Shown: positions 10,766-29,318 of the stretch, piece by piece
Layout of the letters: the number at the start of each line of letters is the position of its first letter
How positions within the stretch are numbered: the stretch's first letter is position 1
From: a virus
Strand: one strand, 5' to 3'
Length of the DNA: 29,355 nt
Virus genome (UHGV): UHGV-0194501
Position numbers and translations under genes: made by a program
The notes under the pieces: model-generated
Databases searched by the model: none
What the model saw: only the letters and a program-made list of their open reading frames with translations
What the model was told of the DNA's origin: nothing

Positions 10766-11587
10766 ATGGTAAATGATGAGAAAATAGAACTCGTTGAAAC
10801 GGAAGAGTATAAGGAATTTGTTGACAAATTCAAAATCAAGCTGACGACGGATGACTGCTACACCCCTGATGGAGTGTATAAAGTAGTGCGGGATTTCGCT
10901 ATGGCACAGTACGGCTTTGATGAAGGAAAAATTATCCGTCCCTTTTGGCCGGGCGCGGATTATGAAAGCCTTTACTACCCGGAGGGATGCGTGGTACTAG
11001 ATAACCCACCTTTTTCCATCCTTGCAAGAATCGTGAGATTCTATCTTGATATGGATGTAAAATTCTTTCTCTTTGCCCCCGGAATGACAAGCTTAAAGAC
11101 TGGCTCCGATCGCTGGCGCAGTGTGTGCAAGATATATGCGGACGCGAGAATAACATATGAGAATGGAGCAGTAGTTCCAACGTCATTTGTTACCAACATG
11201 GACAAAACGAGGGTTGTATATACAGCCCCAGATCTCCATATGGCAATAGAAAAAGAGGACAAGGAAAGAAGAAAAGAAAAAAAGAAACAAATTGGGAAAT
11301 ATGAGTATCCAAGAGCTGTACTGACAGCCGCACAGCTAAATGGGTATGCGAAGCGAGGTGTGCGATACGAAGTGATGCGCGACAGGTGCGAGATCATTTC
11401 ATCGCTGGATTCACAACGTCCAAAGAAGAAAGCCATATATGGCGGGGCGCTGCTTTTATCCGACCGGGAAAAAGCCGACCGGGAAAAAGCCGACCGGGAA
11501 AGAGCCGACCGGGAAAGAGCCGAAGTGTGGGAATTAAGTGACCGAGAAAAGGAAATTATATCCAATTTATCGGAGGACAGGACATGA
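10766..11587 (+). CDS. Putative DNA N6-adenine (amino) methyltransferase inserted between terL and portal
   Basis: TTDDCYTP and VLDNPPFS motifs; visibly AT-richer than its flanks. Confidence 0.65.
   Translation: MVNDEKIELVETEEYKEFVDKFKIKLTTDDCYTPDGVYKVVRDFAMAQYGFDEGKIIRPFWPGADYESLYYPEGCVVLDNPPFSILARIVRFYLDMDVKFFLFAPGMTSLKTGSDRWRSVCKIYADARITYENGAVVPTSFVTNMDKTRVVYTAPDLHMAIEKEDKERRKEKKKQIGKYEYPRAVLTAAQLNGYAKRGVRYEVMRDRCEIISSLDSQRPKKKAIYGGALLLSDREKADREKADRERADRERAEVWELSDREKEIISNLSEDRT
11460..11519 (+). repeat. 15-bp tandem repeat x4 (CCGACCGGGAAA[A/G]AG) encoding DRE(K/R)A
   Basis: Directly visible in the sequence. Confidence 0.9.
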
Positions 11588-25331: not shown

Positions 25332-25360
25332 TTGACAAATCTCCCTTGATGTGGTATAAT
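25332..25360 (+). promoter_or_regulatory. Consensus sigma-A promoter with no downstream ORF
   Basis: TTGACA-17-TATAAT with TGn extension. Confidence 0.8.
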
Positions 25361-25366
25361 TTCATC

Positions 25367-25470
25367 ACGTAGAAAACGCAGCGCGTTTGCGGGGCGGGAT
25401 TGGCGGCCAGCCGATCCGGCCCTATTTTTGCGTAAAGAAAAAGAGACGCTCGCCACGTCTCTTTTTTTTT
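25367..25470 (+). ncRNA. Putative structured sRNA (~100 nt)
   Basis: Promoter upstream; closing stem ACGTAGAAA/TTTTTGCGT encloses two hairpins; terminator downstream; no RBS or ORF. Confidence 0.55.
25438..25470. terminator. Bidirectional intrinsic terminator
   Basis: AAAAA-GAGACG-ctcgcca-CGTCTC-T9. Confidence 0.85.
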
Positions 25471-25499
25471 GGATTGGACGATACGCTTTTGACTTTTTA

Positions 25500-25527
25500 C
25501 AGTCACCCCCGCACACGCGGGGATTGG
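25500..25527 (-). CRISPR. Solitary type I-E-like CRISPR repeat (not an array)
   Basis: CCAATCCCCGCGTGTGCGGGGGTGACTG resembles the Firmicutes I-E repeat pattern GTNTTCCCCGCNNNNGCGGGGGTGATCC. The CCCCGC-tetraloop-GCGGGG stem is intact and followed by GTGA. Confidence 0.68.
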
Positions 25528-25548
25528 GTATCGCCCGATCACGTATAT

Positions 25549-25577
25549 AGTATATCATGGATGCGGGCGGATGTCAA
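25549..25577 (-). promoter_or_regulatory. Sigma-A promoter driving the repeat-containing RNA
   Basis: TTGACA (25577-25572)-17 bp-TATACT (25554-25549) with TGn extension. Confidence 0.8.
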
Positions 25578-25592
25578 GATGGCAGCAAAAAT

Positions 25593-26087
25593 TTATCTGC
25601 ATTTTTCGATGAGCCACTTTGCGCTTTTTTCCGTGCGGATTTTCAGGCGGCGTTCCCATCTGCCAATCGGCATCCACTTCGCACGCGCGCCGTCGATCTC
25701 TTCGATCATCTCTTCAACGGACGCATCCGCAGCGGCTTCACCTTTGCGGCGGATCATGATCTTGCGCATCTCGTCGATGATATCATCCGCCGTGGCGTCC
25801 GCGTACGGCGCATCATACATGATCGCGCGGCAGCGAATTTTTTCTGCCCATGCGATTTGTTTTACGGTGCCCTCCAAAGCCGGAAGCCCCAGCCGGACGG
25901 CCTGCGCGCGGATCATGCGCTCTTCGGATTCTTTGCACTCTTTTTCATAGCACTCCGGGCACATGGTGATATGCTCGGCAGCCCATTTTTCATAGGAATC
26001 CGCTTCATATCTTTTCCCGCACGCCTTCCGATGCTCGAACTCGCACCCGCATTTTTCGCAAACTCTTTTGATAATCGCAACCGCCAT
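25593..26087 (-). CDS. Zn-binding accessory protein (164 aa), anti-defence candidate
   Basis: CEKCG, CPEC, LPALEGTVKQIAWAEKIR; RBS AAAGGA; own operator-containing promoter. Confidence 0.75.
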   Translation of the reverse strand: MAVAIIKRVCEKCGCEFEHRKACGKRYEADSYEKWAAEHITMCPECYEKECKESEERMIRAQAVRLGLPALEGTVKQIAWAEKIRCRAIMYDAPYADATADDIIDEMRKIMIRRKGEAAADASVEEMIEEIDGARAKWMPIGRWERRLKIRTEKSAKWLIEKCR

Positions 26088-26125: not shown

Positions 26126-26164
26126 CTGTGATTATATTATAGCACATAATATGTGCCATGTCAA
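26126..26164 (-). promoter_or_regulatory. Consensus promoter with palindromic operator (copy B)
   Basis: TTGACA-17-TATAAT; the spacer contains GCACATA-N-TATGTGC. Confidence 0.88.
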
Positions 26165-26190: not shown

Positions 26191-26553
26191 TCAAAAAAAT
26201 TTTCGATCAAAAATCCCGATCAGCTGCGCAAGCATGATACGCAGGTATGGCGGCGTGCGATTAATCTCCGCTTCCCATGCCTGCAAAGTGCGGCGCGGGA
26301 TGCAGTACCTATCACAAAATCCCATCTGAGACAGTCCGAGCCGCTTTCGGACGTCTCGCACACTGAGATGCGCGACGTCCCATATGCTTTCCAGCTGATC
26401 CAGCAGATAAAGATCGGGATCGGCGTCGTCCGGGATATCGTCCTGCTCGATCTCGGCACCGTGATGCATCCAGTAGTCCAAAAACGCGTCCCGGCCATCG
26501 GCCGGGAGCGACACTGCATGGGAAAATATATCATGGAATTGTTTGTCATCCAT
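26191..26553 (-). CDS. XRE HTH protein with acidic N-terminal domain (Aca-like repressor candidate)
   Basis: VRKRLGLSQMGFCDRYCIPRRTLQAWE...TPPYLRIML; last gene of the operon from promoter A. Confidence 0.8.
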   Translation of the reverse strand: MDDKQFHDIFSHAVSLPADGRDAFLDYWMHHGAEIEQDDIPDDADPDLYLLDQLESIWDVAHLSVRDVRKRLGLSQMGFCDRYCIPRRTLQAWEAEINRTPPYLRIMLAQLIGIFDRKFF

Positions 26554-27397
26554 GGGAGATCACCTCAAACATTCCGGGAGTAGCCCCAACACCTGGGAAA
26601 ATATCGCTGTCATTTTGGGCGGATTGCCATGCACTGGATACGTCGCCGAGGTCGTCAAAGCGCACCCCCTGTATAACAATTTGTACGTCCGTACCGCGCT
26701 GTGTACGCCCAATTTTTTTCAAAGATTTGCAAAGGTTTTCCATCTCATCCTCCGAGAGGGAGGCCACGACATACATGCGCATTTTCCATCCAGCAGCGGC
26801 AGCGAAACTCTCGACCTCCCCGTACAGGAAATCGTCCAAATTTCCATCTTCGCAATATTCTGTTAATTCCTGCCAAAAACGGCGCTCTACATTTTTTACT
26901 GCTGGCACGTCTCTGTGCTGGATGAGCGCATCCGGCACCCATGCCCAGATGCTGTCTTCGTCGGGATCAAGATGACTTGCAATTGCGTCAGAAAATGACA
27001 TCCACGCTTGTTTTCCAAGCATTTCCATTGCGTTTGCGGATTCGATGCTGGCAGCCATGTCGTAGTACAGCTGCTCCATCACATAGCGGATCGGGTGCGC
27101 GTACATATCGAGACGGCCGCGCACCGCTTCCATGGCTTTCAGCCCGGTCTTTGCATACTGCGGATCGTGTACCGCTTTTCTGGCCCAGTCTTTATACTCC
27201 GCACGCGGCATCTGGAAAAAGAAAGCGCCGTCCACGTATGCCGTGGATGTATGATCGAAGCCCGTGCGCGCGTCGTGCAGATGGACACGAAAGCGAAGCT
27301 GATCCAGATAGTCGGTATCCGCAAAATCCATCGTCCCGGCGTCCGTATCCCACAGGTCGATAATCTCCCAGGGCGATAATCTTTTAATTTTTTCCAT
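26546..27397 (-). CDS. Acidic hypothetical protein (283 aa), anti-defence candidate
   Basis: RBS AAAGGA; D/E-rich; N-terminal ~100 aa resemble the upstream ORF. Confidence 0.75.
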   Translation of the reverse strand: MEKIKRLSPWEIIDLWDTDAGTMDFADTDYLDQLRFRVHLHDARTGFDHTSTAYVDGAFFFQMPRAEYKDWARKAVHDPQYAKTGLKAMEAVRGRLDMYAHPIRYVMEQLYYDMAASIESANAMEMLGKQAWMSFSDAIASHLDPDEDSIWAWVPDALIQHRDVPAVKNVERRFWQELTEYCEDGNLDDFLYGEVESFAAAAGWKMRMYVVASLSEDEMENLCKSLKKIGRTQRGTDVQIVIQGVRFDDLGDVSSAWQSAQNDSDIFPGVGATPGMFEVISHG

Positions 27398-27462
27398 GAT
27401 TTAACATCCTTTCTCAATGTGGCATCCCGGGGGCTTTCGCCCCCGGTGCGCTGTCTCTTTCT

Positions 27463-27798
27463 TTATCCGATACGATCCAGGGCTTTCAGCGTGCTTTCGT
27501 CCGGATCGAACTCTTCGCCCCAGTACTCGCAGTAGGCATCCAATTTTTGGTTCAGATCGTCTTTCACTTCGTCGAGGTAGTCCACCCAGTCCGGATTTTC
27601 GTCCGTCATCATGTCGTAGAACTCGTCCTCGCTCATGTCCTTCACATAAGCGCCGCGTCCGCTGCTGTACTCGATCTTTTCGCCGTCTTTGCTGACCAGC
27701 GTGACGTATACCCAAAGGTATCCATCGTAGTCGATTTCAAAGCTGCCGCAGTGAGTGCTCCAAAGATTTTTGACCTGCTCCAAAGTGAGATTTTTCAT
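27463..27798 (-). CDS. Small, highly acidic protein (111 aa), Acr / DNA-mimic candidate
   Basis: RBS AAAGGA; rich in D/E and aromatic residues; first gene after promoter A. Confidence 0.8.
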   Translation of the reverse strand: MKNLTLEQVKNLWSTHCGSFEIDYDGYLWVYVTLVSKDGEKIEYSSGRGAYVKDMSEDEFYDMMTDENPDWVDYLDEVKDDLNQKLDAYCEYWGEEFDPDESTLKALDRIG

Positions 27799-27886: not shown

Positions 27887-28065
27887 TAGCTTTTACGAAA
27901 AAACTTAAAAAAATTTTTCTTCCATCAATTACCAAAAAAGCAAATCCAAATCGGTTTTTGCCGCACTTTTTGCCGCACTTTTGCCGCACTTTTGACCTTT
28001 GCCGCACCCCTGCCGCAGCCGTTTTGCACCCAAATGCACCTATTTTCCCCTTTGAAAAACGCTGC

Positions 28066-28116: not shown

Positions 28117-28168
28117 TGGAGCTGGTGGACGGGCTCGAACCCCCGACCTGCTGATTACAAATCAGCTG
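28117..28168 (-). tRNA. 3' part of tRNA-Thr(UGU) forming the attP core (not a full tRNA)
   Basis: CAGCTGATTTGTAATCAGCAGGTCGGGGGTTCGAGCCCGTCCACCAGCTCCA: anticodon arm with TGT, T-arm GGTTCGA and 3' CCA; no D-arm or 5' acceptor strand. Confidence 0.9.
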
Positions 28169-28217: not shown

Positions 28218-29318
28218 TTAGCCGTGCCGCACTTTTGCCGCACTTTCAGAATTTCCCTTTTCCCTGTAAGCACGCAGGGATTTTACGGCGTTTTCTTCCA
28301 TCTCCGGCGTGAAGTGGGTGTACACATTTGCCGTCATTTTTATGTCACTATGTCCCAAAAGTACCTTCGCGACGTTGAGCGGGACACCAGCCGCTTGCAT
28401 ATCGGTGGCAAAAGTGTGGCGCAGGCAGTATGGCGATAGATCGTCCGCAAGCCTTGAGATCATGATGCGATTTCGGTACAGCTGCGCGCCCATCTCGATA
28501 TCCAGCGCGCGGCGGAAGCTTTTCCACATACGCTGCACCCGGTCGTGCGTCATGGGGGATACACCGTCGGACATTGTAAAAATTTGGATTGAGAGGGTTT
28601 TTCTTTTGGCCGCGCGAAGATCGTCCAGCAGCTCATCCGGGATCGGCACGCGACGCACACCGGCACGCGTCTTGGTCGTCTGCCGCCCGATGGAGTGAGA
28701 GACAGACAAAAGCGCGTGCGGAAAGTCCACATCCGACCAGCGCAGATCGGCAGCCTCGGACGGACGCAGTCCGCAGTACAGCATGAGCTTGATCCACAAG
28801 CCGGCCGGGTGATCCTCCGCGACTTTGAGGATGGCGGCGCGCTCGGCGTCGGTGATCGATCGGTGCGTACCGGCGACCGCTTCCGGCGCCTTCAGCCCGC
28901 GAGCGGGATTTTTCTGCAAAATGTCATCATTTACCGCTGATTCAAAAATTTGCATCATGGTCATGTGGATTTTCTGCACCTGGCTATGGCTTTCTCCCGC
29001 GTGCGCTGACAGTATCCGCGCGCAGTGGCTGCGGCGGATATCCGCCAGCCGGATCGCCCCCAGCACGGGATCGAGGTGCTTCCGCACGATCGTCTCGTAC
29101 ATCCGTACGGACTTTTTCACGACCGTCCCGCGCTTATAGGTATCGAGCCAGTGCTCGGCATAGTCGTCGAAGCGTGTGCGGTCATTTAGCACAGCAATTC
29201 CATTTTCTACCTTGATTTGCGCTTCCAGCACCTTTTTGTCCAGCTCCGCTTGACTGTCCGCCCGGATGGTCATCCGCCGGCCTCCCGGCAGCGTGATATC
29301 TTTTCTAAATTTTTGCAT
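28218..29318 (-). CDS. int: Tyrosine integrase
   Basis: GLRPSE, CLRHT, LLGH, VYTH catalytic motifs; RBS AAAGGAG; adjacent to attP. Confidence 0.95.
   Translation of the reverse strand: MQKFRKDITLPGGRRMTIRADSQAELDKKVLEAQIKVENGIAVLNDRTRFDDYAEHWLDTYKRGTVVKKSVRMYETIVRKHLDPVLGAIRLADIRRSHCARILSAHAGESHSQVQKIHMTMMQIFESAVNDDILQKNPARGLKAPEAVAGTHRSITDAERAAILKVAEDHPAGLWIKLMLYCGLRPSEAADLRWSDVDFPHALLSVSHSIGRQTTKTRAGVRRVPIPDELLDDLRAAKRKTLSIQIFTMSDGVSPMTHDRVQRMWKSFRRALDIEMGAQLYRNRIMISRLADDLSPYCLRHTFATDMQAAGVPLNVAKVLLGHSDIKMTANVYTHFTPEMEENAVKSLRAYREKGNSESAAKVRHG

Follow-up and report, generated by a model that had tools for sequence, protein, structure and literature searches.

What does a phage gain from a single type I-E-like CRISPR repeat placed behind a promoter of its own? 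The question arises from a short intergenic segment of the virus genome UHGV-0194501, the whole analysed stretch of which (29,355 nt) is referred to here as the window. An earlier note had read the segment as a crRNA mimic, in which a free 33-nt spacer follows the repeat and a terminator, lying exactly one 61-nt period downstream, replaces the second repeat hairpin. Our analysis points, with slightly better than even confidence, to another kind of mimic: a predicted RNA anti-CRISPR (a Racr-type decoy) directed against a type I-E system and held together by a clamp between its 5' leader and the distal part of the presumed spacer.

An ORF family scan identifies the window as part of a temperate tailed phage encoding terminase, portal, capsid and tail proteins, M23 endolysin, holin and integrase. 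No Pfam Cas family was detected among the 31 ORFs scanned, in agreement with the previous statement that the window lacks cas genes. A clue to the host lies beside the integrase gene (28218-29318):

28117-28165, minus strand: attP-like 3' half of a tRNA-Thr gene

This half matches at least 120 loci in a genome scan, every one of which differs from it at one position, and nearly all of the 80 titles listed are Clostridia (among these titles, mostly Acutalibacteraceae, Ruminococcus and Oscillospiraceae), so that the tRNA sequence makes a Clostridial host likely. Relatives of the integrase did not yield a reliable host name; in two of the three relatives of the locus described below (L154 and L155), the integrase region is more distant and the tRNA half is absent. 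Direct repeats with a unit of 11-12 nt, likely integrase arm sites, lie on either side of the tRNA half in the window (27956-27993 and 28225-28247) and are kept in L154 and L155. Type I-E is rare in the sampled host order, cas8e being detected in 13 of 401 genomes sampled from the order and in 17 of 401 sampled from a family. Because none of the 162 host-clade array spacers matches the phage beyond 14 nt, the true host locus is probably not among the I-E loci scanned here.

The RNA gene consists of the following parts:

25549-25577, minus strand: sigma-70-type promoter, TTGACA-17-TATACT with an extended -10 (score 11/12)
25528-25542, minus strand: 15-nt 5' leader, which would form the 5' side of closing stem P1 (transcription start placed from the promoter)
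25500-25527, minus strand: solitary type I-E-like repeat, stem 25522-25507
25499-25506, minus strand: 8-nt 5' handle-like segment, which keeps -7 U and -5 A and is without the CC at -3/-2
25485-25498, minus strand: 14-nt arm between handle and P1 (15 nt including the preceding base), of the same length in 4 of 4 copies
25472-25484, minus strand: 3' strand of P1 (anti-leader), from the fold and the relatives
25434-25470, minus strand: hairpin with U-tracts on both strands, arms 93% complementary, one two-sided change among the copies

The elements on which the earlier note was built are all in place: TTGACA begins at 25577 and, after 17 nt, TATACT ends at 25549; the repeat spans 25527-25500 and the 33-nt segment 25499-25467; and the hairpin with its U-tract at 25470-25434 is likely, from its predicted fold, a bidirectional intrinsic terminator, which a simple terminator scan of the window did not list. 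Both promoter hexamers are invariant in the relatives L153-L155. The repeat stem has a predicted probability of 1.00, and the expected Cas6e cleavage site falls between 25507 and 25506. In the window there is a single occurrence of the repeat core, where 0.06 would be expected with three mismatches allowed; no second repeat was found within 35-80 nt of it, and a degenerate remnant resembling the repeat is situated about 128 nt downstream. The pattern of promoter and repeat core was detected in 0 of 381 Clostridia genomes. Close copies of the element were not found in exact and degenerate scans of viral contigs, protein-based scans gave distant loci only, and only short matches were returned by a DNA search of the 401 genomes of the Oscillospiraceae sample and, at chance level, by BLAST against phage and plasmid records. 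Among RNA-labelled sequencing runs, X18 contains the element on a 20,022-base contig that is DNA-like, and X15-X17, flagged as probably DNA, leave it uncovered.

Three features extend beyond the earlier description, namely pairing of the leader with the spacer, pairing of the handle with the seed, and a convergent RNA gene on the plus strand. A three-way junction is the predicted fold of the transcript (z -4.9 with the terminator left out), in which the 15-nt leader pairs with 25484-25472 to form P1, enclosing the repeat hairpin and the 14-nt arm; 12.5 leader bases are paired in the predicted ensemble. Part of the 33-nt 'spacer' is thus predicted to be occupied: the leader takes up its distal 13 nt, and only 14-15 nt after the handle lie outside the closing stem, an arm that possibly serves as a short guide or as a landing strip for Cas7. 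The two pieces that a cut would produce are predicted to bind each other at -13.5 to -17.2 kcal/mol. The handle-like segment is in turn predicted to pair with the seed; since the fold of handle and spacer in the window, at -5.2 kcal/mol, does not exceed the strength seen in host arrays (mean -6.7), this hairpin carries little weight. The first bases of the transcript, GTGATC, were also considered as a handle mimic; they read GCGATC in 2 of 4 copies, and the candidate was dropped.

A metagenome scan, the pattern of which itself fixed the handle and nine seed bases, recovered three relatives (L153-L155) that carry the element. All three keep the repeat along with the handle set by the search pattern, and L155 retains the element despite an exchanged upstream gene. 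Across the four copies, P1 pairing holds in 48 of 48 cells; one change is two-sided and another one-sided (G-C to A-U, and G.U to G-C), so that all changes in the relatives preserve the stem, and run X5 represents the G.U intermediate. Two points count against a decoy: in four such similar copies, the covariation of P1 does not reach significance (52 of 500 shuffles), and the duplex between the leader and downstream sequence has, compared with shuffles, only p 0.062 in the window (p 0.002-0.004 in its relatives). The distance from handle to P1 is 14 nt in all four copies. That from the repeat stem to the terminator is 61, 60, 60 and 59 nt, and hence the 61-nt period, exact in the window, is not a conserved feature; the start of the terminator stem is itself arbitrary, because A-U pairs extend it. 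A further expectation, that relatives would carry the same cassette with a variable spacer, was borne out for the cassette, present in all three, but not for the spacer, which is not variable.

The predicted closing stem recurs in other phages. When viral contigs were scanned for a promoter with the repeat core behind it, 19 loci were obtained, 10 with a second repeat and 9 without. Five of the nine single-repeat loci carry, as judged by eye, an I-E-type handle, and their leader:downstream duplexes, compared with shuffles, have p 0.008 (L228), 0.002 (L231), 0.002 (L237), 0.044 (L239) and 0.43 (L242). The other four single-repeat loci all have p>=0.31; among the ten loci with two repeats, one, L226, comes down to p 0.008; none of 78 host array repeats has such a duplex at p<=0.01; and 15 more solitary sites picked by eye, nearly all lacking a detected promoter, are without a clamp, their lowest p being 0.14. 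The loci L231 and L237 are homologous, with neighbours 55-58% identical and with diverged leaders and spacers; each pairs 13-14 leader bases, and a U-tract directly follows P1. The arms measure 26 nt in L231, 27 nt in L237 and 34-35 nt in L228. A covariance model built from the four copies places L228 and L237 on top among 36 other loci (E 3e-4), in favour of a decoy; that it misses L231 speaks against one. Given the predicted duplexes of the window set, L228 and L231/L237, the modelled clamp is common to three lineages and four unrelated leader sequences.

A broad repeat scan of viral contigs returned at least 144 loci, mostly REP-like palindromes, and 37 of 177 sites were solitary among the matches listed. 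REP palindromes of the CGTC type look much like the I-E repeat core and can mislead Racr searches that are based on the repeat. Two other loci deserve mention. At about position 301 of L342 (minus strand), an I-E-like repeat with handle:seed pairing precedes a second repeat-like end, which is of a different type, presumably I-C-like; there is a possible weak clamp (p 0.14). L226 (G1148:C1:5158-5382) is a two-repeat I-E mini-array located about 400 bases from a gene of the AcrIE7-like family.

The RNA gene adjoins a cassette with the following features:

25593-26087, minus strand: zinc-ribbon protein of 164 aa, remotely homologous to AcrIE7 and AcrIF23, encoded immediately upstream of the RNA gene
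26136-26164, minus strand: perfect promoter that carries a palindrome between its -35 and -10 elements; another copy lies at 27886-27858
26191-26553, minus strand: 120-aa HTH protein (HTH_3 below cut-off)
26546-27798, minus strand: two genes of the same cassette without family assignment, 283 aa and 111 aa

The previous description of an acr-like cluster next to the element is upheld at the level of remote homology, no member being a validated Acr, and with it the acr/aca linkage of the solitary repeat: a profile of 85 members of the zinc-ribbon family matches AcrIF23 (E 4.6e-7) and AcrIE7 (E 2.5e-6) over two motifs. The family is large (5129 representatives), and the window protein has the second Acr motif only in an altered form; its AlphaFold model is weak (pLDDT 64), and a Foldseek search with this model gave no significant match, AcrIF23 ranking second with E 0.98. 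That one profile matches both proteins suggests, from sequence, that these two Acrs have a common domain. AcrIE7 binds the single-stranded DNA of the R-loop, as described in PMC12002350. Family searches returned none for the 283-aa and 111-aa proteins. For the 120-aa HTH protein, we assume an Aca-like role. An HTH gene is found beside the RNA in all three clamp lineages; the window, L228 and L231 also have a phrog_16123 gene close to the RNA, and L228 encodes homologues of both window genes (AcrIE7-like and HTH). L154 and L155 have another palindrome in the cassette promoters than the window, and in L155 the recognition helix of the HTH protein is different as well. In P0112, a relative of the 164-aa gene, the C-terminus reads into the repeat region, as after a deletion that would have taken out the promoter and leader of the RNA.

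The phage 28-mer is identical to 17 array repeats of the likely host order at 14-22 of 28 positions, the best being that of L159 (22/28, and 20/21 in the core), where validated type I Racrs have 22/28 to about 25/29 with the repeats of their test hosts (as given in PMC10651486); this supports the proposal that the solitary I-E-like repeat is a Racr candidate. The best BLAST match to a host repeat, among only these 17 repeats, has 40.1 bits over 20 of 28 nt, just under the score demanded by SRUFinder (thresholds >=90% identity, >=90% coverage and >=41.1 bits); the set in the corresponding paper comprises 17,823 repeats, and a validated Racr that was found only in part is reported there (PMC10651486). 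The base after the phage 28-mer is Y, as in 112 of 139 host spacers. The handle is altered: 162 of 162 host handles end in CC, and that of the phage has CTG, so that, of the positions read base-specifically in E. coli (-7, -5, -3 and -2, according to PMC4288178), the phage has retained the first two and lost the other two.

The Racrs described in PMC10651486 (RacrIE1, RacrIE2, RacrIF1 and RacrIC1) resemble the element in consisting of one repeat behind a promoter, in lacking cas genes and in lying beside acr-like genes, and their identity to host repeats falls in a similar range. RacrIE1 shares its 17-nt stem-loop core with the phage element, and the primer used to clone RacrIE1 begins two bases ahead of the repeat (PMC10651486). 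The phage element is likewise solitary, intergenic and free of cas genes, resembles host repeats in both sequence and stem-loop, and has an upstream promoter recognized by its motif; by analogy, it would work like a Racr. I-E Racrs are known, and in PMC10651486 their mechanism is not worked out. For RacrIF1, the same source reports that the stem-loop is essential and the handle dispensable, and that it acts through 70-76 nt of free upstream RNA, whereas the leader of the phage element is only 15 nt long and predicted to be fully paired downstream, a difference that counts against a decoy.

Starting from the observed sequence, conservation, genomic context and recurrence of the predicted stem, we propose the following course for transcription, cutting, binding and inhibition. 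A small RNA with one repeat hairpin would start at 25542, and its leader would pair with the distal half of the 'spacer'. Once bound to the hairpin, host Cas6e would cleave the RNA at the hairpin base, and the 36-nt 5' piece, with Cas6e, and the 72-nt 3' piece would stay joined via a stem of 12-13 bp. Because the repeat starts right after P1, the nicked RNA would be laid out like a crRNA with a 15-nt spacer, that is, crRNA-like in shape, with handle, 15-nt arm and Cas6e-capped hairpin. The altered handle would load Cas5/Cas8 poorly, so that the RNA would tie up Cas6e and a portion of the Cas7 and would not guide cleavage of DNA.

A broader proposal, possible but in our judgement well short of probable, is that phages evolved a circularly permuted crRNA more than once, in which the single repeat provides both handles, the helix of leader and anti-leader aligns the Cas6e products, and arms near one-Cas7 steps load a shortened Cascade as a decoy or a repressor; the four available arm lengths (15, 26, 27 and 34-35 nt) cannot show a 6-nt rule.

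The rival that survives best, although we consider it rather unlikely, is a circularly permuted short guide of the Cracr kind, in which P1 would re-attach the Cas6e hairpin behind the 15-nt spacer and a small but complete Cascade would repress a promoter, for example that of cas genes, without cleavage by Cas3. As described in bioRxiv 10.1101/2024.10.29.618823 and 10.1101/2023.03.03.530964, Cracr, CreR and CreA resemble the element in having their own promoter and terminator, a repeat-like element and a short usable spacer, and phage Cracrs against I-E have been reported (bioRxiv 2024.10.29.618823). The position of the repeat directly after P1 suits such a guide, and so do the arm lengths, that of the window being the length in the -18 crRNA that assembles StCascade (a complex with assembly defects, in the account of PMC6859484), those of L231 and L237 lying near 33-6 and that of L228 near 33; L228, moreover, retains a canonical handle, which fits a guide better than a decoy. 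The seed is the reverse complement of the -35-like TTGACTTTTT.

CreR-like mini-arrays exist in the likely host order, in Oscillospirales: in L158 (the cas3-cas8e gap, ~11400-11510) and in L159 (5940-6090), the spacer of the latter having a distal hairpin. Their spacers match their own cas8e promoters over 15 and 14 nt, with an AAT PAM and mismatches at 6 and 12. Against this background, a target for the phage arm was sought as a cas-promoter match beside a PAM with at least 9 PAM-proximal bp. Its best run in 25 cas promoter regions was 7 nt, where the CreR controls scored 15 and 14; no convincing target was found in 26 I-E loci (328,574 bases); 27 I-E genomes gave two matches against one in the control, both within long open frames (chance level); and no self-target beyond 9 nt was found in the window. 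I-E Cracr and CreR, as described in the two preprints, have two or three repeats and a cas-promoter match, whereas the element has one repeat and a closing stem, and its handle, which is predicted to be engaged by the seed, is not canonical, lacking the base-specific CC. The absence of a target in the scanned loci together with the altered handle thus favours a decoy over a guide. Two viral contigs, L240 (1501-1640 and 2400-2600) and, likewise, L244, carry two I-E mini-arrays each, a spacer of which matches a site about 1 kb away over 14 and 13 nt, with an AAT PAM; the matched site in L240 lies behind a promoter and ahead of a gene, resembling CreTA-like self-regulation.

Less probable still is that the element is no CRISPR mimic at all, being instead another structured small RNA, such as one half of a pair with the convergent RNA, or a look-alike of CGTC-type REPs. 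The partner would be the following gene:

25332-25470, plus strand: second, convergent small-RNA gene candidate, with a perfect promoter at 25332-25360 (12/12), a structured body and the terminator common to both RNAs

This candidate (z -3.5 without the terminator, no match in Rfam) is conserved in L153-L155, and 8 nt of it are complementary to the 5' end of the repeat. In L155, one of its hairpins has survived an insertion of 30 nt and numerous other changes. Such a reading would also accord with the rarity of I-E in the sampled host order and with the many repeat-pattern matches in viral contigs that are REP-like. CGTC-tagged REPs (PMC3733652) are, like the repeat, GC-rich palindromes with a 4-nt loop, but they are reported from five phyla, none of them Firmicutes, whereas the element occurs as a single copy in the window, behind its own promoter and in a Firmicutes context. 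The same architecture, with clearer I-E repeats, in L228, L231 and L237, the AcrIE7-like neighbour and the lack of any Rfam score near the gathering value for the element all argue for a CRISPR mimic. It also differs from viral CRISPR mini-arrays, which likewise have a promoter-driven I-E repeat in a phage (10 of the 19 scan loci are of this kind), in having no second repeat one period away and a spacer that does not vary among relatives. The original picture of a one-piece crRNA, in which a free 33-nt spacer is followed by a terminator standing in for the second repeat, is very improbable, as the 61-nt distance seen in the window shifts in the relatives, the distal spacer changes in step with the leader, the host-type CC is missing from the handle and the U-tract abuts P1 in L231 and L237, even though E. 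coli Cascade is described as needing only one nucleotide 3' of the spacer and P1 could melt after the cut.

A permuted or leader-paired single-repeat RNA was not found in the literature searched; the bioRxiv table of 219 Cracr candidates may contain such loci. Searches for Racrs look at the repeat alone, and the recurring closing stem provides a structural signature for divergent decoys missed by repeat-matching. The clamp also allows one to ask directly whether Cascade will take a permuted crRNA made of two pieces; should it do so, a guide cassette with a single repeat would offer a compact means of type I-E repression.
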